The notes: generated by a model not told the origin, from the sequence alone. Positions 8,290 to 64,000 are shown, counted from the stretch's first letter. The stretch is DNA of 64,000 bases from Malacoraja senta (GCA_038087875.1 CM075991.1:4836001-4900000), one strand, 5' to 3'. Made by a program: numbers and translations.

Positions 8290-10707
8290 GGAAGGGGCGT
8301 CTGCCTCATGGTCAACTCTGCGTGGTGCTCAGACGTGCCAGTCCTGTCCAACTCCTGCTCTCCACACCTCGAACATCTGGCGTTGAAGTGCCGCCCATCC
8401 TACCTTCCGAGGAAATTCACCTCCATCATCCGGACCGCGGTCTACATCTCAACCCAAGCAGACGTCCGTCTGGCACTGGAGGAGCTGCACGCCGTGGTCA
8501 ACAAACACCAGACGTCTTACCCCGAGGCGTTTACCACCAAAGCTGGGGACTTCAACAAAGCAAACCTCAAGAAATCGCTCCCTAACTTCCACCAACATGT
8601 TTCCTGCTGCACCAGAGGACCAAACACCCTCGACCACTGCTACACCGCCATCAAGGATGCCTATCGCTCTACCCTCGCCCTCACTTCGGTAAATCCGACC
8701 ATTCTTCCTGCTTCTTCCTGCCTAGGGACCTGAACGAATACACCACAGTCGTTACAGGGGAAATGTGTGGAGGACTGCATCTCAACAAAAACCTTCCAAG
8801 TGTTTCCCAATCAGAAGCCTTGGATGAACTATGAGATCTGCACTCTTCTGAAGTCCAGACACTGGGCATTCATGTCTGAAGATACCGAGGACTACAAGAA
8901 GACCAGATACGACCTTAGTAAGGCCATCAAAAAGGCCAAAAGGGACTTCCGCTCCAAGCTGGAGGATGTGACGGATGTTCGGCAGCTGTGGTGGGGCCTG
9001 AATGCAATCACCTCCTACAAGGCGAAATCAGGAGGCAACTCGAATGTCGGCGAAACATCACTCCCTGACGAGCTCAATGCGTTTTACGCACGCTTTGATA
9101 GGGAGAACACTGAAGTGCCTTCTCAAGCCCCCATTCGCTGTGATGGTATTTCAGTCACAGTCACTGAGGTCGACACCAGAAAATCCTTCAGAGGGGTGAA
9201 CCCTCAGAAAGCGCCTGGACCTGATGACATACCCGGTCGTGTTCTAAAAACCTGTGCGGACCAACTGGCTGGAGTTTTTACGGACATTTTCAACCTCTCA
9301 CTTCTGAGGTCTGAGGTTCCCACCTGCTTTAAAAGGGCATCAATTATACCGGTGCCCAAGAAGAGCAAGGTGACGTGCCTCAATGACTATCGACCTGTGG
9401 CACTAACGTCGGTGGTGATGAAGTGCTTTGAGAGGTTGATCATGGAGCAAATCAATTCCTACCTCGACAAAAACCTGGACCCACTGCAGTTCGCTTACTG
9501 CCACAACAGATCAACGGTGGATGCGATCTCACTGGCTCTCCACTCCGCTCTGGACCACTTGGACAACAAAAACTCATATGTCAGGCTGTTATTCATTGAC
9601 TACAGCTCGGCATTTAACACAATCATCCCCTCAAAGCTGGTTACCAAACTCTCAGAACTGGGTCTCTGCGCATCCCTCTGCAATTGGATCTTCGACTTCC
9701 TCATTCACAGACCACAGTCTGTTCGTATTGGTGGAAATGTGTCAGCCTCGATAACAATCAGCACGGGAGCACCTCAAGGCTGCATGCTTAGCCCCCTGCT
9801 TTACTCACTCTATACTCATGTCTGCGTAGCTGGTCATTGTGCGAACTCCATCATCAAGTTCGCTAACGACACCACTGTTGTGGGATGTATCACTGATGGA
9901 GATGAGTATAGAAATGGGATCGACCGTTTGACCAAATAGTGCCAGCATAATAACCTGGTTCTCAACACGAGCAAAACCAAGGAACTGATTGTGGACTTTG
10001 GAAGGGGTAGGATGGGGACCCATAGTCCTGTTTATATCAACGGGTTGATGCTGGAGAGGGTCAAGAGCTTCAAATTCCTGGGCGTGCATATCTCTGAAGA
10101 TCTCTCCTGTTCCGAGAACACGGATGCAATTATCAGCGCCTCTACTTCCTGAGTCGGTATGTCAAGGAGGACTCTCTCAAACTTCTACAGGTACACAGTG
10201 GAGAGCATGCTGACCGGTTGCATCGTGGCTTGGTTCGGCAACTTGAGCGCCCAGGAGCGGAAATGACTACAAAAAGTTGTACACACTGCCCAGTCCATCA
10301 TCGGCTCTGACCTCTCTACCATCGAGGGAATCTACCGCAGCCGCTGCCTCAAAAAGGCTGCCAGCTTCATCAAAGACCCACACCATCCTGGCCACTCACT
10401 CATCTCCCCGCTGCCCTCAGGTAGAAGGTACAGGAGCCTGAAATCTGCAACATCCAGGTCCAGGAATAGCTACTTCCCCACAGCCATCAGGCTACTAAAC
10501 TCAATTCATACAAAACTCTGAACATTAATAACTCATTGCACTTTATCTGTTTATTTATTTGTGTGTGTATATATTTATTCAATGGTATATGGACACACTG
10601 ATCTGTATTTATGCCTACTATATTCTGTTGTGCTGAAGCAAAGCAAGAATTTCATTGTCCTATCTGGGACACATGACAATAAACTCTCTTGAATCTTGAA
10701 TCTTGAA
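8290..10707 (+). mobile_element. Rex1/Babar-clade LINE, 5'-truncated and inactivated (partial APE endonuclease + RT)
   Basis: ORFs show AGDFNKANL and TLDHCYT (APE), FPNQKPWM, PGPD.IP, NDYRPVALTS..MKCFE, LFIDYSSAFNTI, GAPQGC.LSPLL and KFAND (catalytic FADD mutated). The C-terminus reads HPGHSL..LPSGRRYRS and the tail is (CTTGAAT)n at ~10688-10707. There is an internal deletion near 8725 and there are stops and frameshifts. Confidence 0.93.
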
Positions 10708-21400: not shown

Positions 21401-22704
21401 ATGATCGAGGACAAAGTTCTTCACTTGTTAGATTTGTCAGACTGTCAGCAAAGATAGAGGCAAGATAGAAAAATAGTAAACTTGTAACTGTGTAGAGTTG
21501 TCACAAAGGTACAAACTTCCTTGCCTTTGGTTTTATGTAGAGTGGCATAGTGGAGTCAGTTAATATGAACATTTCATCCTGGGAAGTTTCTCAAAACTGT
21601 TTGCTTTGTGGCGAATCTGAGCACATTTGCCACGTGAACTTTGTTTTATCTACATGTCTGCAATTAGCTGGGCTTGACACAGGGTGCCCACACCATTGAT
21701 GTGCCATGTAGCCTAGGCAGTGAAGAAACGCACTGGCTGCTTCAGGTTCAGAATGCCCAGACAGCTATTAACAAGAGGCAAGATTGCCCTTCTTTGTTTT
21801 AATGAGTAATATATGGCTCCCCACATAAATAAATTGCTTTGTTTAAAGAAGGAAATGCTCGGTAACTAGGGGCAGTGTCTACTGGGTGTAACATCAAAAA
21901 CAACAGAGAACCTTTGAAGCCTGTTATTCTTTGTGATCTAGAGGAAGATCCATATAAAGCAACACTGTTTTTTAAACACGAAGGAACATGTTGCATTGGT
22001 TCTTGTGGAATTACCAATGAGTGAAATACTTCATTGATAATCAGCATTGTATATCAATGTATATTTAATTGATATGCTATATTTAATTGTATACTCCATT
22101 AAAGTTATTTCCGTGTGATGCATATAGCAGAGGCAAATTGCAGTACAGCCCAGTACAACCATTTACCAGTTCTTGTCAACACAGGCAAGCCATAATTTTT
22201 TAAGAGAAGCCATATTTTCCTCTTTCTGCTTTTTGTTCTCTTAATGATGGCTGAAGCAGAGGGTTCTTTTGGAAATAAGGTTGATGCCTCAATAACAATC
22301 TTCTAAAGTCAACAAAAATAATTTAATGGTGATATAGAAGGAATCAGGCGATAGATGGGATTAGAGGAGTCGGAATCTACTGTGCTTGCTCCTTATTTCT
22401 ACCTGATTAACTAATCCCTTTTGTATCTGGAAATCTGGGTGTTCAATGGCACCTGTGTCCTGCTGTCTCTTCCAAAATATTGCTACAGTCTCTAGATTGA
22501 CATCTACTGGTTGCATTTGCACTGCCTGATTGAGCACCAAGTGGCTTGAACTGCTGCTGGCCAGTCACTTGATGAGGTAAAAAGACAATCACAGTTCCTC
22601 CCTGTCCTGTTCCCGACATGCGCAGTGAATTATTGATCACAGTGCAACTTTTCCTGTGTTATTGGTAATAACAATGAGAGTACTTAAATTAAATTAAATT
22701 AAAT

Positions 22705-24128
22705 TAAACAGTAGCAAAACAGAATTTCTCCTCATTGGCTCCAAATCAACACTCACTAAAATTAACAGCCCCACTCTCACTATTGACGGCACCACTGTCT
22801 CCCCATCTCCTCAGGCCCGCAACCTTGGCGTGATCTTTGACTCAACCCTCTCCCTTGAGCCTCACATCCGCCATGTTGTCAAAACATCATTTTTTCACCT
22901 CCGCAACATTGCCAAAATCAGACCCTCTCTCACACCCCCCGCTGCTGAAAGACTCATCCATGCCTTCATCTCCTCCCGACTGGACTACTGTAACTCTCTT
23001 CTCTTTGGCATCAATTCCACCAACATCAACCGACTCCAACTGGTCCAGAATTCAGCCGCCCGACTCATTACCCACACCAAATCCTGGCACCACATCACCC
23101 CAGTTCTCAAAGAACTCCACTGGCTTCCCATTTCCCACCGGATCATCTACAAAATCCTGGTCCTCACCTACAAAGCCCTCAACCACTTGGCCCCCCCTTA
23201 TCTCACTGACCTCCTCTCCCCCTACCAACCCTCACGGTCCCTCAGATCCACATCAGCTGGTCTCCTCTCCACTCCGAAATCAACCCACTGCACGTTTGGA
23301 GGCAGAGCCTTCTCCAGGGCAGCTCCCAGGCTCTGGAATTCCCTCCCACAACTGATCCGAAATTCTGAGTCCCTCACCATCTTCCAGTCCCGCCTCAAGA
23401 CCCATCTCTTCACCTCTGCATACCCTTAAAGGCCTGTCTCACGAGTCTGCGGTCATTGGCGGCGAAACGGGAAGAATCTGCCGCCATAGACCGCGCACTC
23501 GTGAGAACGCACAATTCCGGGGCCGTGCGGCGATGTTCCCAACACCACACGGTGCTAAAATAAAACCTACACTGTTGAAAAATATTTTCCTACCGCACAA
23601 CCTCCACCAGTGATGCACGAGTGTGGCACGGCCGCCCGCACGGGCCGCCGCCAGTGTGGCTCGAGCGCCGTGCGTCAAACTCGCACTACCACAGCCTCCG
23701 CCAGTGAGGCACGTGTGCGGCACGGCTGCAGGCACAGCCACCGCTACAGCGCCGCGATCAGGACGGCCGCCGCCACAGCCGCCGCTGGTGAGTCACGTGC
23801 GTCGGGCCTACGTCATCGCAGTCGGCCCGCCCTTTTTTTTACTTACCGCAAGCACGTGGGACCAGCCGTATTTTAATCACTCGGCCCCCGCGCAGCATCC
23901 GTGCGGCGCTCCCGTGGATAGGCTCAGCGCTCTCGCCGTTGCCGTGCGGTCCACTCTACAGGCGAAGCCGCGCTTCACCGCCGATGACCGCAAACACGGA
24001 AGACAGAGTCCCATGTTCCCCTCCCCTTTGTAGCTCTGTCTTATTGTTTATTCTTGACTCTCAATGTAAAGCAACTTTGAGTCCTGAAAAGCGCTATATA
24101 AATAAAATGTATTATTATTATTATTACT
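22705..24128 (+). mobile_element. L2-clade LINE 3' end, interrupted at its stop codon by a MITE
   Basis: ORF 22830..23429 HAFISSRLDYCNSLL...LQLVQNSAARL...HITPVLKELHWLP...FSRAAPRLWNSLP...LKTHLF. The 3' UTR resumes at ~24009 and ends AAAAGCGCTATATAAATAAAATG(TAT)n. Confidence 0.9.
23430..24008. mobile_element. CpG-rich ~580 bp non-autonomous DNA transposon (PIF/Harbinger-like MITE), copy 1
   Basis: Near-identical to 58504-59085. Imperfect TIRs AGGCCTGTCTCACGAGTCTGCGGTCATTGGCGG / CCGCCGATGACCGCAAACA..AGACAGAG. Inserted after the TAA stop of the L2 ORF; the last bases of the right TIR are missing. Confidence 0.82.
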
Positions 24129-54864: not shown

Positions 54865-55370
54865 TTGGGAATTACGCCCCTGTTCTGCTTTGAAATGGTG
54901 TCAGGATTGTTTTTACTTCTACTTGAGGTGATAGACTGGACATTGGTTAAATAACTTGTTTAAGAAGGAACTGCAGATGCTGGAAAATAGAAGGTACACC
55001 AAAATGCTGGAGAAACTCAGCGGGTGCAGCAGCATCTATGGAGCGAAGGAGATAGGCCTTTAAGAAGGAACTGCAGATGCTGGAAAATCGAAGGTACACA
55101 AAAATGCTGGAGAAACTCAGCGGGTGCAGCAGCATCTATGGAGCGAAGGAGATAGCTTCGCTCCATAGATGCTGCTGCACCCGCTGAGTTTCTCCAGCAT
55201 TTTTGTGTACCATTGGTTAAATAACTTGTCTTAAAGATGCCACCTATGATAACACAGCACTCTTTCAGTAATGCACGAGTATTGTCAAAAAAAAAATTCT
55301 AGTCTGTGTAGATGAGTTCAGATCAGTGATCTTCTGGCTTGGGAGAATGTACCTCTATCTGAGCCATGGC
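54865..55370 (-). mobile_element. Ancient DeuSINE (SacSINE1/AmnSINE-like) remnant split by a Penelope insert; related tail at ~45000-45160
   Basis: The sequence resembles the reverse complement of the Deu domain (cccctgttct.ctttgaaat.gtg.c..gat..tttta ... aaagatgccacct..ga.a..cagcactct.tcagta.tgcac) and a tRNA-like head ending ctgagccatggc. Recognition is from memory. Confidence 0.5.
54960..55210. mobile_element. Penelope-derived element: two tandem units plus one inverted unit
   Basis: 19 bp TSD CATTGGTTAAATAACTTGT (54941-54959 and 55211-55229). Confidence 0.82.
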
Positions 55371-56414
55371 AAATGGAAAACCGATTAAAGTAATGAAATT
55401 GCGACCCCATTCACATTACTTGATATCTAGAACTCCACCTTCCACCCCAGATATCTGATATTTGCCCACTATCCACTATACCCCAATTTCTTTAACTCAA
55501 TATCTCAATATCTCCAATTTTAATTTCTCCTTCTCGAGACTCCAGTCCTGAGACCCCACCTTTGGGCTTCAATTGAGACCCCAAATATTACAATTTCTCT
55601 TGTCCCTCCCCTGCTCCCTCACTCTCCCACCTCTCCAGACCTGATTGCAGATGTAGACTTACTATGTTTATCTTTGTACACTTAAAAACGCACATGTGCA
55701 AATGTGTGTGACATACCACCATTCATACATTAGATCTTTGTCACCCACTACTGATTGTTGCTGCATTGTGCCTCTGACCAAAATGGATATGGTGGACTTT
55801 GGGGTGTCCCTTTGCTGTGTTGCTACAGGTACAGCAACCCAGCTTCAATCCTCATCTCCGTTGCTTTCTGTGTAGAATTTTGTACCTTCAAGTGCTCCAG
55901 TTTCCTCCCACATGCCAAAGATATGAATGTTGGAAGGTTAATTGACCACTGTAGATTTCCTCTGGTATACTGCGTGTGGGAATGAAGGACAATAAGTTAT
56001 AGGAAAAATTAGTGGGTAAATGGGAAGCTCTGACAGTTAGCATATCAAATGACCTCTTCATAATGAATGGAAATAAGCCAGGAGATATCAAAATAGGATC
56101 TACAATATGAGCATGTGAGTTTACCAGTGGGCCTGCTAACGAGGCAGTTAATCGAATCATTTTGAAAATCTCACGGGTTGATATTCATTGTGGTGATTTA
56201 GAGCTGCCTTACAACACATCTCCAGTGTTTGGATTATTCTTTGCACTATAACCTTAGGTAATGTTGGCAGTGCATTGTGCTTGCCCTTATCAGCTCTGGT
56301 CATAACATCCAGCTGTCTTCCATCACATGCTCCAGATCAGTTTGAGCAAGCTGGGGAATTGGAGTAGGGAGAGGGCCAAGTGCCTTAAGGCTGTAGTACC
56401 ACTGAGCTGATTAG

Positions 56415-58193
56415 TCAAGTCAAGTCAAGTGAGTTTATTGTCATGTGCCATTGCACACAGAACATAGTAGGCATTTACTACAAAACAGATCAGTGTGTCC
56501 ATATACCATAATATAAATATATACACACATGAATAAATAAACTGATAAAGTGCAGATAACAGATAATGGGTTATTAATAATCAGAGTTTTGTCCGAGCCA
56601 GGTTTAATAGCCTGATGGCTGTGGGGAAGTAGCTATTCCTGAACCTGGTTGTTGCAGTCTTCAGGCTCCTGTACCTTCTACCTGAAGGTAGCAGGGAGAT
56701 GAGTGTGTGGCCAGGATGGTGTGGGTCTTTGATGATACTGCCAGCCTTTTTGAGGCAGCGACTGCGATAAATCACCTCAATGGAAGGAAGGTCGGAGCCG
56801 ATGATGGACTGGGCAGTGTTTACTACTTTTTGTAGTCTTTTCCTCTCCAGGGCGCTCAAGTTGCCGAACCAAGCCACGATGCAACCTGTCAGCATGCTCT
56901 CTACTGTGCACCTGTAGAAGTTAGAGAGAGTCCTCCTTGACAAACCGACTCTCTGTAATCTTCTCAGGAAGTAGAGGCGCTGATGAGCTTTCTTGATAAT
57001 TGCATTAGTGTTCTCGGACCAGGAAAGATCTTCAGAGATGTGCACCCCCAGGAATTTGAAGCTCTTGACCCTTTCAACCATCGACCCGTTGATATAAACG
57101 GGACTGTGGGTCCCCATCCTACTCCTTCCAAAGTCCACAATCAGTTCCTTGGTTTTGCTGGTGTTGAGGGCCAGGTTATTGTGCTGGCACCATATGGACA
57201 GTTGCTCGATCTCTCTTCTATACTCTGACTCATCCCCATCAGTGATACGTCCCACCACAGTGGTGTCGTCAGCGAACTTGATGAAGGAGTTCGCACTGTG
57301 ACCGGCTACGCAGTCATGAGTATAGAGTGATTACAGCAGGGGGCTGAGCACGCAGCCTTGAGGTGCTCCCGTGCTGATTGTTATCGAGGCTGACACATTT
57401 CCACCAATACGAACAGACTGTGGTCTGTGAATGAAGAAGTCGAGGATCCAATTGCAGAGGGATGCGCAGAGACCCAGTTCTGCGAGTTTGGTAACCAGCT
57501 TGGAGGGGATGATTGTGTTAAATGCCGAGCTGTAATCGATGAATAACAGCCTGACATATGAGTTTTTGTTGTCCAAGTGGTCCAGAGCGGAGTGGAGGGC
57601 CAGCGAGATTGCATCCACCGTTGATCTGTTGTGGCTGTAAGCGAACTGCAGTGGGTCCAGGTTTTTGTCGAGGTAGGAGTTGATTTGCTCCATGATCAAC
57701 CGCTCAAAGCACTTCATCACCACGGGTGTTAGTGCCACAGGTCGATAGTCATTGAGGCACGTCACCTTACTCTTCTTGGGCACTGATATAATTGATGCCC
57801 TTTTAAAGCAGGTGGGGACCTCAGACCTCAGAAGTAAGAGGTTGAAAATGTCCGTAAAGACTCCAGCCAGTTGGTCCGCACAGGTTTTTAGAACACGACC
57901 GGGTATACCATCAGGTCCAGGCGCATTTCGAAGGTTCACCCCTCTGAAGGATCTTCTGACGTTGGCCTCTGTGACTGAGACTGAAATACCATCACAGCAA
58001 ATGGGGGCTCGGGAAGGCACATCAGTGTTCTCCCTATCAAAGCGTGCGTAAAACGCATTGAGCTCGTCAGGGAGTGATGTTTCGCCGACATTCGAGCTGC
58101 CTCCTGGTTTCGCCTTGAAGGAGGTGATTACAGTTAGGCCCCGCCACAGCTGCCGAACATCTGTCTCAACCTCCAGTTTGGAGCAGAAGTCTC
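56415..58193 (-). mobile_element. Rex1/Babar-clade LINE of the same family as 8290-10707, 5'-truncated RT half
   Basis: ORFs 57331..58020 and 56581..57258 are in the same frame, separated by one premature TAA. KFADDT is intact and the C-terminus is RFRNSYFPTAIRLLN. A (CTTGA)n tail reads gtcaagtcaagtcaag on the + strand. Confidence 0.93.
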
Positions 58194-58503
58194 CAGATGT
58201 TCCTCCTGGCTCGACACTACAATAATTAACAAAATGGCTAATGATGAAGCTTCTGGTTAGGTTGCCCTAAAGCCGGTTAAATTAATCAGAGATCTGGCTT
58301 TTACAGACTGCCACAAAATTGGTATAGGGTGAGCCATTTTACGCCCAGAAAACATCAAGTGAAACCAGTTTCTCTTTCTTTATCCTTAATACTCAAAACA
58401 GCATCAAAAGGTATCCAAGAATATTCTCATTGTTTATATTTGTGTCTGGAAACCATATCCTTTTGTCAGGCATTTTAGGCCACTACTATCAAATGTTTCT
58501 TAA

Positions 58504-59085
58504 AGGCCTGTCTCACGAGTCTGCGGTCATTGGCGGCGAAACGGGAAGAATCTGCCGCCATAGACCGCGCACTCATGAGAACGCACAATTCCGGGGTCGT
58601 GCGGCGGTGTTCCCAACACCGCACGGTGCTAAAATAAAACCTACACTGTTGAAAACTATATTCTTACCGCACAACCTCCACCAGTGATGCACGAGTGCGG
58701 CACGGCCGCCCGCACGGGCCGCCGCCAGTGTGGCTCGAGCGCCGTGCGTCAAACTTCCACTGCCACAGCCTCCGCCAGTGAGGCACGTGTGCGGCACAGC
58801 CGCAGGCACAGCCACCGCTACAGCGCCGCGATCAGGACAGCCGCCGCCACAGCCGCCGCTAGTGAGTCACGTACGGCGGGCCGACGTCATCGCAGTCGGC
58901 CCGCCCTTTTTTTTACTTACCGCAAGCACGTGGGACCCGCCGTATTTGAATCACTCGGCCCCCGCGCAGCATCCGTGCGGCGCTCCCGTGGATAGGCTCG
59001 GCGCTCTCGCCGTTGCCGTGCGGTCCACTCTACAGGCGAAGCCGCGCTTCACCGCCGATGACCGCAAACAGTTAAGACAGAGCCT
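58504..59085. mobile_element. CpG-rich ~580 bp PIF/Harbinger-like MITE, copy 2 (complete)
   Basis: TAA|AGGCCTGTCT...AGACAGAGCCT|TTA with ~35 bp imperfect TIRs and internal direct repeats (ccagtga.gcacg.gtg.ggcac). The ORFs inside are GC-driven and have no recognisable domain. Confidence 0.85.
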
Positions 59086-59214
59086 TTACTATATTCTGTT
59101 TGTTCCATCACACATGGATTGTTTATGAACCGTGTTCTCTGTAGTGGCATACTTTTTGCATGGTCCAAGTACATTTTTAACATTACTGTGCCCTGAGGCT
59201 CTGTTAGCTTAGCT

Positions 59215-59735
59215 CTGGTTAGATCACATTTCTGGCTGCCACGTTATAGGGTGCATGTGGAGGCTTTGGAGAGGGTGCAGAAAAGGTTTACCAAAATACT
59301 GCTTGGATTAGGGAGCGTTAGCTAGAAGAAGAGGTTGGGCAAACTTGGATTATTTTCTCCAGAATGCCGGATGTTGAGGGGAGACCTTATAGAAGTAGAC
59401 AAAATTATGAGAGGCGTAGGTAGGGGAGACAGTCAGAATCTTATTCCCAGGGTAGAAATGTCAAAAACTACAGGCCACAGATTTAAGGTAAGAGGGGCAA
59501 CCTTTTTACACATAGAATGGTGGGGTCCTGGAACGTGCTGCAAGGGGTTATGGTGGAGTCTGAAACAATAATGGTGTTTAAGAAGCTTTTAGATAGGCAC
59601 AAGATATGCAGGGAATGGAGGAATATGGGTCATGGGCAGGCCGATGAGATTAGTTTATCTTGGTATTATATTTGGCGCAGATATTGTGAGTCGTAGAGCT
59701 TGTTCCTGTGGTGTATTTTTCTATGCTCCATGTAC
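59215..59735 (+). mobile_element. CR1 3' fragment (others at ~60640-61215 and ~63140-63595)
   Basis: LGLFS.E.R.LRGDLIEV.KIMRG...GHRFKVRG. Confidence 0.78.
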
Positions 59736-60247
59736 TAATATTGTATGTTTCGTCATTCAGATTTACCACAAACCACAGAATAATTTCAATATTTAATTTC
59801 ACGCTGACCCTAGACTATCATAAATAGATTACCTCTATATTACAGGCTGGCTGCTGGCTGTTCAACCTATTTCGCTCTGATCCTAATCTTAATGTTGCAG
59901 TTGATGATGTGCTGCTATTAGCAAAATTGATTACACTACGGTAATTTCTGTAAGGCGTCAAGCTCCTGCCTGTACATTAAAGATGATTTTCATATACTCA
60001 TGGTACTAATAGAATTGGATTGAAGACTGTGGGCACCAGCCCTCCCACACACATGTGGAGAACTTTTGGGTTTAATCTGTGTGCTTTGTAACTTTGTCAA
60101 TGCCCTTTAAGTGGCAACGATTGCATACCTTGGGTATGGCAGCAAAGAATTTCACTGGGACTTGTCACATGTGACAATAAAGTATTAATCAATTAGTTAA
60201 TTAATTTGATCTGCATGAGGGAACAATAGAAAAGGAAATGGCGGAAA

Positions 60248-60630
60248 CCAACCTGACCTCCCGGTGGCTCAGCACTTCAACTCCCCCTCCCATTCCGTAT
60301 CTGACCTCTCTGTCCTGGGCCTCCTCCATGGCCAGAGTGAGCACCACCGGAAATTGGAGGAACAGCACCTCATATTCCGCTTGGGGAGTCTGCATCCTGG
60401 TGGCATGAACATTGAATTCTTACAATTCTGTTAGCCCTTGCCGTCTCCTCCCCTTCCCATCTCTCCCTCAGCCCGCGGGCTCCTCCTCCTCCTCCTTTTT
60501 CTTTTCTTCTCCCTGCCCCCTCCCACCCCACATCAGTCTGAAGAAGGGTTTCAACCCGAAACGTTGCCTATTTCCTTCGCTCCATAGATGCTGCTGCACC
60601 CGCTGAGTTTCTCCAGCATTTTTGTGTACC
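60248..60630 (+). mobile_element. Penelope-like element 3' end with a hammerhead core
   Basis: Same GIY-YIG tail (VAQHFNSPSHS...EEQHLIFRLGSLHPGGMNIEF); CTGAAGA-AGGGTTTCAACCC-GAAA at ~60538-60561; TSD TGGCGGAAA (60239-60247 and 60631-60639). Confidence 0.85.
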
Positions 60631-60749
60631 TGGCGGAAAGCAAAGTCAGAGGTTGAAGGGAGACCTGATAGAAGTCTATGAAATTATGCATTATTGCTGG
60701 CCCTACTACTTATCAAATTCATGGATATGTTGTTTTTGTTTCATTTTAT

Positions 60750-60833
60750 TTATATATTTGTAATTTGCTTGTTTTGTCTGTAAGGTGTCCTTGAGTGTCC
60801 TGAGTGTTCTGAAAGGCGCCCATAAATAAAATG

Positions 60834-60866
<33 letters not shown>
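60750..60866 (+). mobile_element. L2-type 3' tail with (ATT)n
   Basis: tgtaaggtgtccttgagtg..gaaaggcgcccataaataaaatgc(att)10. Confidence 0.7.
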
Positions 60867-60867
<1 letters not shown>

Positions 60868-61256
60868 GGGTAGACAATCAGAACCTTTTTCCCGTGGTGG
60901 AAATCTCAAAGAATACAGGGCATAACTTTAAGATAAGAACAGTAATTTTTAAAAGGAGATGTGCGTGGCCTCTATAACAAAGGCAACTTTTTACACAGAG
61001 GGTGGTGGGTGCCTGGAATGCATTGGAAGGGGTGGTGGTTAAGACAGATATGATAGTGGCATTTAAGAGACCTTTTGTTAGGATTGTGAATACAGTACAC
61101 AGGAATTGAGGTATATCACGCGCAGGCAGAGGAGATTAGTTTATCTTGGTATCATATTCAACACAAACATTGGTGGCCGAAGGACAATATCCCGTGCTGT
61201 AGTGTTCTATGTTCTAAGTGGGGAGCATTGTTCTAGACCGAAGTAACTTTTCACAT

Positions 61257-61780
61257 TGAAGTCTGGCTCAGCCAGTGGCACCTAGGAATAGACTGGGTGA
61301 CAACCAAGAATAGTTTGGTGACTACTGGAGAGACAGTTGACGGCACGGAAAGACGGCACCCGGGACAGGCTGGGTTAGCACCCCAGTCTGTGTCTTTCGT
61401 GAGAAAGACACCTAACAAAGCTACGGAAAGGCCTAATGAACCACCGTGGCCTAAAAATCCATCAGGCGGGAATGAAATGCTTGGAGAAGGAGAAAGAGGT
61501 GCAGTGCACAGGGCCTTGAACCTGGTGAGCCCAGTCGGGATTCACCCCACAGAGCCCAAGTCCCTCCACGCACTAGAGTCTCCCAACCCCTGCAGAGTAG
61601 TTATTAAGATGGCTGATCTGTGGGCGGTTGCTGCTGGGACGCAAGTCGGGGCCTGATCAACCCGGCTGGGTCGCCTGAGCGAGGGTGTCTGATGTTGTGA
61701 GACCCGAAACACCCGATGATCCCAGGTCACACCACTGAGGATGCGTCCCAGCGCATCTAGAGGATGTATATTTTTCACAT
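61257..61780 (+). mobile_element. Internally deleted Hero/R2-clade non-LTR retrotransposon derivative (5' UTR + ORF start fused to ORF end + 3' UTR)
   Basis: An alternative frame reads NHRGLKIHQAGMKCLE (half C2H2 zinc finger of R2/Hero N-termini), fused to ...DLWAVAAGTQVGA* and a structured 3' UTR. Flanked by TTTTCACAT direct repeats (61248-61256 and 61772-61780). Confidence 0.7.
61668..61757 (+). ncRNA. Candidate rearranged (non-circularly permuted) hammerhead ribozyme, copy 1
   Basis: GGGTG-TC-TGATGT ... GACCC-GAAA-CACCC ... ACACCA-CTGAGGA-TGCGTC; stem III is perfect and stem I has one mismatch. Confidence 0.5.
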
Positions 61781-63196
61781 ATCTCTACCTTACCAAACAA
61801 ATCTGTTTGGCCTAAATCCTCTCCCGCACTAGACCACTTTCCATTTGCTGATTAGTGCTAAATTAAGAAGTGCTTTCTTCTTTTGGTTGAAACTGTTGAC
61901 GTCATTGCTGTAGAGTGCACGCAAACAATACATACAGGTGATTTCTAAACCAACCATTTGTGTGGATCTTTATCATGTGGGATTGAAAGGCTAATTTAAT
62001 AATTTACTAATTTACATTAATCTGTCCAATCTTATTTTACAGAGATTTGTTTCAAAAATTAACGTGGTGGAATGACTGTGGTGGTGACAATGGAGCAGAT
62101 AGCTCAAATTTAAAAAAACAATAATTGCATGAAGATTCGAGGAGGGGAAATTGAATTGTGGCTATAAAACTAAATTGGTAATGTCAAAAACAGCAGATGT
62201 TGGAAATCTACAATAAAACAGAAAATGCTGAAAACACCAGCAGGTTAGACAGCATCTATGGAAAGAGGCACAGTAAATGTTTCTGGTCTGAGACTCTTCA
62301 TCATAACTTGGGCATTTGATTGTTCCAAAATTGAAAGATTAGCAAGATTCATCCAGTTTTAATTCAAAAAGGTTTCATAGCACGAAAAGATTGGAAACCA
62401 TCATATTTAGAGATTGGCTCAGGAAAATCTGGAAACCATGTTTGTTTAATAATCTTGTTAAACTCAACAGTGCAAAGATTTGGAAATCCCCAACCACCCT
62501 GTACAGCATCTAACTGGAGACAGTAGTAATGTATGTTAGTGTATGAGTCATGCTGGCAGATATGTATATCTACTCACTGATCTACTCACTGGAACGGTGA
62601 CTCAGAAGAAACTCTTAGGATCATGAAAGGCAGAAGTCAGCAAAGCAGGGAAATGTCAGAAGTAGGTTGGAGTAGTTCAACAGGATGCCACAGGCTTTTA
62701 AGACTCCTCCACAAATTTTCAGATTTTATTTAACCTTTATATTTATGTTGCAATGTTGTAGACCACAGAAAAAATGAACTCAAGCCAAAATGTTGCAAAG
62801 ATAAGCATTTAATTTTTAAATGTGAATCCTTGCTGCTGTGTCTAGGTTTGAATCTATACCTCATATAAATACCTAAACATAACTAGTCACTTTTGTGTCA
62901 TACAACTTTTACCTATATGTGAAGCTCTGCTTTGAAAGTTTATATCAGGTTAGTTTTTAGGTCATGTTGTTATAGTGGAATTTAAAAAAACCACAAGATT
63001 TCTCAGCAATCTTTTTTGTCCCATAAAGCTTCCTGCAGTTAATTCCACTTTGTTATCTGGTCACTGTAAAACCAGAATATGACATTATCTTTTGCTCTGA
63101 ATAGTCGTAAGTAGTAAGGAAGGCAAACACAATGCAAACATTTATTTCTAGAGGACTAGAGTAAAAAAACAGGGCTGTAATACTGAGGCTCTATAA

Positions 63197-63417
63197 AGGG
63201 CCTGTCCCACTTGGCCGTCATTTGCGCGTCATGCAGGTGGCTCGCGAAGATTTTGTGAATCCCAATATCCTGGGGCGCCGCTCGCGACCGCGCGTCACTG
63301 CCTACGCCACCACGTCTCACCACGCGCCATGCACGCATAATGCACGCCATGTGCGCGTGATGCGTAAATGATGTCGCGTAAATGACGCGCAAATAACGCC
63401 CAAGTGGGACAGGCCCT
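63197..63417. mobile_element. 221 bp PIF/Harbinger-like MITE, copy B, inserted in a CR1 fragment
   Basis: TIR AGGGCCTGTCCCACTTGG...CCAAGTGGGACAGGCCCT with flanks TAA/TGA. Removing the element plus one triplet restores the CR1 frame L-Y-K-A-L-V-R (CTC TAT AAG GCA CTG GTC AGG). Confidence 0.88.
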
Positions 63418-63595
63418 TGAGGCACTGGTCAGGAGGTATTTGGAGTATTGTGAGCAATTTTGGGCCCCATATCTGAGCAGGCATGTGCTGGCTCTGGAGA
63501 GGGTCCAGAGGAGGTTTACGTGAATAATCCCAGGAATGAGTGGGTTAACATATGATGAGTGTTTGACGGCATTGGGCCTCTACTCTCTGGAAGGT

Positions 63596-63728
63596 CCTGA
63601 TCAACCCCGCCCGGCTGGGTCGCCTGGGCGAGGGTGTCTGATGTTGTGAGACCCGAAACACGCGATGACCCCAGATCACATCACTGAGGATGCGTCCCAG
63701 TGCATCTAGAAGATGTATATTTTTCACA
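63596..63728 (+). mobile_element. Solo 3' UTR of the same Hero-like element, inserted in CR1
   Basis: Closely similar to 61652-61779; ends atatttttcaca. Confidence 0.75.
63617..63706 (+). ncRNA. Candidate rearranged hammerhead ribozyme, copy 2
   Basis: GGGTG-TC-TGATGT ... GACCC-GAAA-CACGC ... ACATCA-CTGAGGA-TGCGTC; stem I is perfect (6 bp) and stem III has one mismatch. Confidence 0.5.
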
Positions 63729-64000
63729 CGGAATTGAACTTATTTGCTGACAATCTTTTTGCAAGATCATAATCTGTGCTAAAAGATTAAAATCTGGAGG
63801 GATGGTAAAACCAAATCTTATCAGATTTCTTGCACGTAGGTTTGACTCAACTGACTCCTGGATAAGAGACCCAGACTGACTGTTTACAAATCTAGAAAGG
63901 TTGGAGAACAGATTAACAAAGCAGTTGTGTGATTGTGGAAGCAGAGGCATGAAGTAAAATCCCAAGACATTGGGTTAATTGGACCACAATATTTTAGCTG

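Follow-up and report, generated by a model that had tools for sequence, protein, structure and literature searches.

A conserved six-helix RNA with a split hammerhead core in Hero-type retrotransposons: a predicted ribozyme and a possible circular template for reverse transcription

The window analysed in the present study is a stretch of 64,000 nucleotides from Malacoraja senta (GCA_038087875.1 CM075991.1:4836001-4900000). Near its end, two copies of a repeated element lie on the plus strand, and both are assigned to an R2-like (Hero-type) retrotransposon family. Copy 1 (61232-61779) is a non-autonomous, internally deleted Hero-type element, truncated at the 5' side within its own 5' repeat. 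It is about 91% identical to the full copy L022, and the unit of this derivative family measures about 535 bp. The copy opens with a decayed remnant of the 5' terminal repeat, which is the element's tail (61232-61255, recognized by a match to the junction pattern) and which abuts the start of the 5' UTR. A frameshifted remnant of the N-terminus of the open reading frame (ORF) follows at 61439-61602, corresponding in tblastn to residues 13-70 of the homologue P0001, and behind the deletion joint come the final ORF codons (61603-61656); it is here that autonomous copies diverge from the derivative. The RNA motif begins with the 5' strand of helix P0 (61633-61643), whose partner (61742-61752) stands right after CUGANGA. 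It continues with hairpin H (61644-61667), which has the self-complementary loop word UGAUCA (61654-61659) and carries the ORF stop codon (61654-61656) inside its loop, the 5' strand of stem II (61668-61672, partner 61701-61705), whose first letter is G10.1, and the 5' strand of helix X (61674-61679, partner 61721-61726), which links stems II and I. The segment 61683-61695 holds the 5' strand of stem III, U16.1 (61688), C17 (61689) and the 5' strand of stem I, and the cut is predicted after C17. The 3' strand of stem II, ending in C11.1, is followed by GAAA and the 3' strand of stem III (61701-61714), and the motif closes with the 3' strand of stem I, the CUGAGGA core (61735-61741) and the 3' strand of P0 (together 61729-61752). 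A terminal hairpin and the fixed 3' end of the element, without poly-A, occupy 61753-61779, the end lying 90 nt past the predicted cut.

Copy 2 (63593-63728) is a 5'-truncated 3' end of the same family without the 5' strand of P0, and its predicted cut falls after C63638. The two copies are 90-94% alike (90% over 136 bases). A first-pass annotation had proposed a hammerhead on non-circularly ordered strands at 61668-61757 and 63617-63706. All the core strands that it named are present there and both of its cleavage letters are correct; the start has to be moved 5' in copy 1, from 61668 to 61633. It had ascribed a single defect to each copy, and the mismatches in stem I of copy 1 (C61732) and in stem III of copy 2 (G63662) are indeed found, but copy 1 has an additional mismatch in helix X (A61678). 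Because copy 1 is mismatched in stems I and X and copy 2 has no 5' strand of P0, neither copy is likely to be active as a ribozyme. The minimum-energy fold of copy 1 partly uses the stem II pairing of the first-pass annotation.

Several other features were observed in the window and its surroundings. A near-perfect 63-nt inverted repeat at 55086-55218 is made up of a common short repeat present twice, in opposite orientations, and yields spurious matches to microRNA models. A short MITE-like element with 37-nt terminal inverted repeats is present at 63196-63418. RT-like ORF fragments of other LINEs lie at 8734-9939, 22698-23429 and 56581-58266, and presumably resemble the Rex1 and L2 families. 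The region of copy 1 has a 99.9% identical, inverted duplicate about 620 kb away (L002, G000:C15:5518807-5521998), which is either a segmental duplication or an assembly haplotype.

In the 1.94-Gb genome, a first look with the 191-base region gave 1208 candidates, of which 40 were scored, and the 32-letter core word has 223 exact matches; thus, the motif of the window belongs to a repeat family. The copies share the fixed 3' end 90 nt behind the predicted cut, and none ends in poly-A. In a sample picked by pattern, about half of the copies (34 of 70) run upstream into an ORF, giving an autonomous unit of about 3.7 kb, and the remaining ones, copy 1 included, fuse the first ~70 ORF codons to the last 17. 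Translations from L036, L121, L123 and L284 contain a reverse transcriptase (RT), a CCHC knuckle and a restriction-like endonuclease (RLE), the last identified by eye; Pfam gave RVT_1 on P0001 and a weak zf-RVT on L036. ORF homologues are 52-90% identical (120 listed of 343 matches), and among the matches listed the named ones come from teleosts, rays and lancelet, with a skate protein the closest of them. R2 proteins are the best PDB matches for the close homologue P0004. We take this family to be the one called Hero, which is consistent with the occurrence of pufferfish and lancelet among the sources of the homologues. Insertions are dispersed and the flanks of different copies are unrelated. 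In the available text of its description, the Hero clade inserts mostly without site specificity (PMC4640811), and our element is consistent with the clade as described there. Target-site duplications gave no consistent signal, the longest shared flank word reaching at least 7 letters in 14 of 116 cases as compared to 5 of 97 controls. Pieces of the element and its deletion joint are present in four of 24 runs, all 24 of which consist of contigs, the RNA status of three of the four being a guess.

The fold of the motif was derived from 83 candidates, of which 45 could be anchored using nothing but the core together with stems I and III; these were reduced to 30 copies below 90% identity. Stem III is paired in 115 of 120 cells and stem I in 145 of 150, figures inflated by that selection; stem II was not a selection criterion. 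The strand before GAAA has its partner about 20 nt 5' of the cut, and pairs in 147 of 150 cells at the best of nine offsets. P0 is formed by the strand after CUGANGA with a strand far upstream (210/230), and hairpin H stands between P0 and stem II (134/150). The order of the strands is P0a, hairpin H, IIa, Xa, IIIa, UH, Ia, IIb, GAAA, IIIb, Xb, Ib, CUGANGA, P0b. As an independent check, 28 of the 45 sequences, of similar length, were aligned with MAFFT without fitting to the fold, and RNAalifold recovered P0, H, X and III from this alignment unaided. It was found that the six helices together are 94.1% paired and that 30 of 34 pairs show changes on both sides. The covariation score was 0.80, against 0.21 in shuffled and at most 0.16 in slid controls; kinship among the sequences inflates such scores, yet the slid controls, which retain the kinship, collapse. 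Stem I is 94.8% paired with two-sided changes in 5 of 5 pairs, stem III 93.4% (4 of 6), the upstream stem II 93.6% (3 of 5), helix X, which joins the free sides of stems I and II, 91.5% (6 of 6), and P0 96%. Two elements of the first-pass annotation are supported, namely stems I and III, which covary, and the hammerhead-type core on strands in a non-circular order. In nested folding, stem I receives no probability and stem II a mean of 0.16, and no energy model supports the full fold; low support for these two stems is expected because they form pseudoknots. Since the strand after CUGANGA is part of P0 and stem II is formed upstream, A9 is not joined to G10.1. The junction of A9, P0, H and G10.1 has no unpaired letters in 27 of 30 copies (ties favoured zero gaps), and a four-way junction is predicted at the break. 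Of the 30 copies, 19 have a self-complementary loop in hairpin H as compared to 2.6 after shuffling, a number that shared ancestry inflates, and the palindromes alternate among relatives (UGAUCA, UGGCCA, CAAUUG). This loop, which in the lineage of the window also contains the ORF stop codon, could be a kissing loop which pairs two RNAs or the two repeats.

The core letters CUGANGA, GAAA, U16.1-H17 and G10.1-C11.1 are all present in the motif. In the 30 distinct copies, for which CUGANGA and H17 were selection criteria, U16.1 got a scoring bonus and G10.1 a small one, U16.1 and G10.1 were each found 30 times and C11.1 28 times; the two exceptions carry U, which gives a G-U pair, and core position 7 varies freely. 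H17 is never G in the 28 aligned copies, again a selected set, nor in the distant model matches checked by eye. Three further relatives (L162, L179 and L184) have C at 16.1 and are either dead copies or a sub-lineage with an altered site. A descriptor composed of the core, stems I and III and the upstream stem II matched two plus-strand places in the window, which are the two copies, and none on the minus strand. It was passed by 24 of 29 copies of the same genome, and in 80 related loci (267,861 bases) it gave 42 sense and 0 antisense matches, with 1 match in 20 shuffles. Among 80 viral control loci containing both core words in order (out of at least 122 pattern loci) there was no match. The occurrence of the motif is far above what chance would produce. 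Rfam gave no match to a ribozyme family in 55000-64000 at E up to 5, and no ribozyme match in ten related loci, seven of which have no motif. An HDV-like reading with P0 as P1 was examined by eye and rejected: there is no GG after P1 and no strand with the catalytic C, and about 100 nt would lie inside the helix.

Relatives were collected by a scan of metagenome contigs, which gave 117 confirmed stretches; the best 80 were retained, with 32-68% protein identity in the best segment. The motif, called by a match of the covariance model or the descriptor, stands behind the ORF in 54 of 61 relatives having at least 200 nt past the protein match, and its placement behind the ORF of an RLE-type retrotransposon in the first-pass annotation is supported. 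The loci bearing the motif are spread across the protein tree, and all 63 covariance-model matches in those loci are on the plus strand, which is the strand of the ORF. The motif is absent in the other 7 loci: L136 has the 5' half alone, L193 a decayed core (by eye), and L150, L163, L187, L197 and L203 showed no trace by model or descriptor. The viral collection contained no protein relative, and the 4 loci matched in prokaryote genomes were not informative. Two tiny contigs in bacterial assemblies (L210 and L211) encode a Hero-type protein with 73-82% identity and are probably contamination by animal DNA. In the predicted proteins P0078, P0119, P0121, P0048, P0034 and others, the C-terminus is a read-through of the ribozyme region; indirectly, this speaks for the presence of the motif, or of the 5' half of it, in teleosts and lancelet among the named species. 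By eye, tRNA-like segments were seen in eight loci (L159, L161, L167, L175, L176, L181, L185 and L198), most of which belong to one branch of the tree. These segments lie behind the ORF stop and in front of the motif, and words resembling A and B boxes stand immediately 5' of the ribozyme. They could serve Pol III as an internal promoter from which the following unit is transcribed. No tRNA gene was called by ARAGORN in 11 loci.

The upstream stem II is what separates our reading from that of the first-pass annotation, which had built an imperfect stem II from GCGUC after CUGAGGA with GACCC and had noted an upstream GGGUC that pairs with GACCC. Read in that way, the RNA would be a type-SGC hammerhead switched off by the upstream GGGUC. 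In the fish-like lineage four of the five pairs of that stem can form, and on the 28-copy alignment it is 62.1% paired, a level reached by 4 of 500 shuffles. Its second pair, however, fails in 19 of the 28 sequences, and when the offsets are fixed, its first four pairs form without a fault in 3 of 30 copies, compared with 24 of 30 for the upstream partner. The strand that it needs is already committed to P0, and at offsets 0, 1 and 2 it is 41, 53 and 36% paired, compared with 41, 45 and 39% in shuffled sequences. This stem II is highly improbable and has to be given up together with the switch, the upstream strand being the actual stem II partner in all lineages. It could also be imagined that the fold is not catalytic, and is a structure derived from a hammerhead that is recognized by a protein, or a dimer element acting through the palindromic loop. 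The split core, the self-complementary H loop and a position where LINE proteins bind their RNA would agree with such a role, which nevertheless appears improbable to us: the letters that are fixed are exactly the catalytic ones, with the helix letters free to vary, and G is never seen at H17 in the aligned copies or in the distant matches inspected. The motif is, in our judgement, very probably active as a self-cleaving ribozyme. This activity is a prediction, because no natural precedent for helices between A9 and G10.1 was found in the literature.

Full copies of the element repeat their 3' end at their own start. Thus the sequence that had been described as 3' UTR does lie behind the ORF but recurs at the 5' end, also in the internally deleted derivative of the window. 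The start of the 5' UTR is reached by 70 copies. In 56 of them the sequence continues into the tail, and among the remaining 14 several match the tail junction with more mismatches. The 5' starts were mapped for 74 of 80 junction copies, a few rows of which are duplicates. The length of the 5' repeat varies, and the starts become gradually sparser from the tail through the motif into the preceding unit: 15 fall in the 10 nt nearest the tail junction and 29 lie upstream of the predicted cut, the farthest 296 nt before it. There is no pile-up at the cut, with 4 of 74 starts within 4 nt of it as compared to about 0.4 per nt nearby. A single one of the 74 junction copies (L321) exceeds two units, and its start lies within 2 nt of the cut. 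Arrays of three or more junctions were not found among the 80 junction matches. Autonomous copies have repeats of 190, 417 and 121 bp. In 35 copies with two repeats, 27 non-majority letters are common to the two repeats of a copy, whereas shuffling gave a mean of 7.0 and a maximum of 19 (0 of 5000 shuffles as high), and repeat identity within a copy is 93.6%, barely above the 92.7% between copies. A reading as fixed-length LTRs was rejected because the 5' repeats vary continuously, and independent insertion of a new copy before an old one is disfavoured because the two repeats share private letters. Past the 3' end, the next three letters match the continuation of the element in 88, 59 and 47% of 116 ends, after which the match drops to background; such a run-on would be consistent either with priming at an internal site of a longer RNA or with a preference for certain targets. 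The seam is intact in all 30 copies of the genome that were inspected, and in the 223 exact 32-mer matches, a word which selects for it. In other collections, 10 of 82 loci show a direct repeat from end to start, or contigs that overlap or wrap through the ORF, though cyclic contigs and end overlaps may equally arise from repeats collapsed in assembly. One circular contig (L150) has no motif, and therefore end-joining may not need the motif RNA. A long hairpin is predicted in this contig near 1325-1420 (L150:1154-1780) and may be another processing element.

In the reading that we find on balance probable, the RNA cleaves itself, is circularized and serves for target-primed rolling-circle reverse transcription. 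In a solved hammerhead, as far as the available text describes it, A9 pairs with G12 adjoining G10.1-C11.1 (PMC11300833). In the Hero RNA, P0 and H would stack as a four-way junction and hold A9-G12 on G10.1-C11.1, a proposal made from helix geometry. The core so arranged would cleave after H17. A copy with two complete motifs would be cut twice, giving a unit-length RNA whose ends are clamped by helices P0, II, X and III, and the clamped ends could be ligated by the RNA itself or by a host ligase. The protein of the element would then start target-primed reverse transcription within the circle, about 90 nt behind the seam. Reverse transcription would cross the seam and often enter a second lap, and this second lap would restore the two-ribozyme arrangement required for the next round. 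Because of the terminal redundancy, the likely role of the motif shifts from 3'-end processing to the production of a unit-length, probably circular, RNA. That the template is a covalent circle seems to us a reasonable, if far from certain, conclusion from the genomic pattern.

Two other routes to the same redundancy have to be considered. The RNA could be cut twice and never form a covalent circle, its ends held together by the helices, so that an R2-like RT jumps across the open seam. The R2 RT copies across non-continuous templates, and such jumps would explain the same pattern in DNA. Any copy of more than 90 nt has to pass over the seam, however, and the seams inspected are intact, whereas template jumps usually add or lose letters; the 5' ends, moreover, are without a pile-up at the cut. 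Alternatively, read-through transcripts of tandem master copies could remain uncut, with a slow or regulated ribozyme whose sole use is to free a 5' end for translation, like the HDV-like ribozyme of R2. Intact seams would follow from uncut RNA, one copy above two units is known, and the published type-SGC ribozymes are slow, with rates of 0.007-0.19 per min (Eckert et al. 2023, PMC10085705). Against tandem masters stand the absence of arrays with three or more junctions among the 80 junction matches and the private letters common to both repeats of a single copy, which means that a fresh duplication from a single repeat would be needed; in addition, the redundancy is seen alike in autonomous and deleted forms and in other species. 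Both the jump across an open seam and the uncut tandem transcripts are unlikely, to a similar degree, and circularization followed by rolling-circle copying remains the reading that we prefer.

The closest known RNAs are the type-SGC and type-CSG hammerheads. Eckert et al. (2023) divide the hammerhead into blocks S, G and C, set out a scheme of six permutations and, in the main text, know of no alignment with more than 1-2 letters between CUGANGA and its stems; RefSeq was searched on that unsplit-block basis (PMC10085705). Like these types as described there, the Hero RNA has stems I, II and III that mutually cross, complete core letters, and a short linker between stems I and II with an extra helix on their other sides (here X). 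In type SGC/CSG, in contrast, CUGANGA runs directly into stem II, whereas two helices stand between them in the Hero RNA, well beyond the 1-2 inserted letters by which A9 and G10.1 are joined in the forms of that text. The Hero RNA is opened inside block C, which Eckert et al. assume to be intact, and its open ends lie there. Nor does it show the order S, G, C with block C in one piece: CUGANGA comes after S and G, but block C has its stem II strand on the 5' side of S. The Hero RNA resembles the SGC class in topology and yet is no member of it. The sources differ as well, since type SGC/CSG was described there from metatranscriptomes and metagenomes with one candidate in a bacterial genome, and the Hero RNA comes from animal genomic DNA. 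With types I-III and the pseudoknot hammerhead of Zhan et al. (2024), as available in PMC11300833, it shares CUGANGA, GAAA, NUH, G10.1-C11.1 and three stems, but not the strand order, nor an unbroken A9/G10.1. Retrozymes and Penelope-like elements resemble the Hero elements in their hammerhead-bearing repeats and, as described in the accessible parts of PMC7229834, PMC6765202 and bioRxiv 2026.07.22.740005, in a proposed circular RNA intermediate and in repeated copies made by a retroelement RT. Their hammerheads are of type I or III and their proteins those of Penelope or Gypsy, whereas the Hero motif is found in an RLE element that is autonomous and in the deletion derivative of this element, where the 3' end is fixed and the copies mostly stay below two units. 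The derivative is distinct from a retrozyme, which is a non-coding repeat mobilised by Penelope or Gypsy, in its form of hammerhead and in its derivation from an RLE element. R2, the LINEs with HDV-like 5' ribozymes and the R2 SIDEs, so far as PMC6765202 in its available text goes, also combine an RT and a restriction-like endonuclease with a ribozyme serving the element, and have internally deleted parasites; the Hero ribozyme differs in being a hammerhead and not of the HDV class, in standing behind the ORF and being repeated in front, and in occurring at dispersed sites and not in rDNA.

A full-text search of the literature, with Repbase and most subscription papers outside its scope, gave no paper in which Hero is connected with a hammerhead, with terminal repeats or with circular templates, and found the term 'Type-SGC' in Eckert et al. 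(2023) alone. Nor is the Hero motif mentioned in the available portions of reviews and articles that deal with R2, with retrozymes or with variant ribozymes. Circular intermediates were proposed earlier for retrozymes and Penelope elements, according to the accessible text of the sources cited above for them (PMC7229834, PMC6765202, bioRxiv 2026.07.22.740005). What is apparently undescribed is the architecture, along with its host clade and the genomic evidence of copying beyond one unit in an autonomous RLE element.

Our data indicate that Hero-type (RLE) retrotransposons end in a conserved six-helix RNA that has a full hammerhead core with CUGANGA split from stem II. By its split core, this RNA departs from a rule that has been stated for the architecture of hammerheads, which would account for its absence from the published RefSeq pattern searches and suggests that further ribozymes are hidden by the unsplit-block assumption. 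It also places a non-circularly permuted candidate ribozyme in animal genomes, with at least 223 exact copies of the core in this one. We lean, with some caution, to the wider view that Hero-type LINEs across animals carry a seventh natural hammerhead architecture with a four-way junction in its core, and that they move through circular RNA and rolling-circle target-primed reverse transcription, with no true 5' end and a repeat rebuilt at each jump. For the Hero-type elements, this could be a route to processing and copying which needs neither a promoter-defined 5' end nor a poly-A tail. If true, they would be a natural case of a protein-coding LINE integrating from circular RNA, and would be of direct interest for R2-based gene insertion and for the production of circular RNA in cells.
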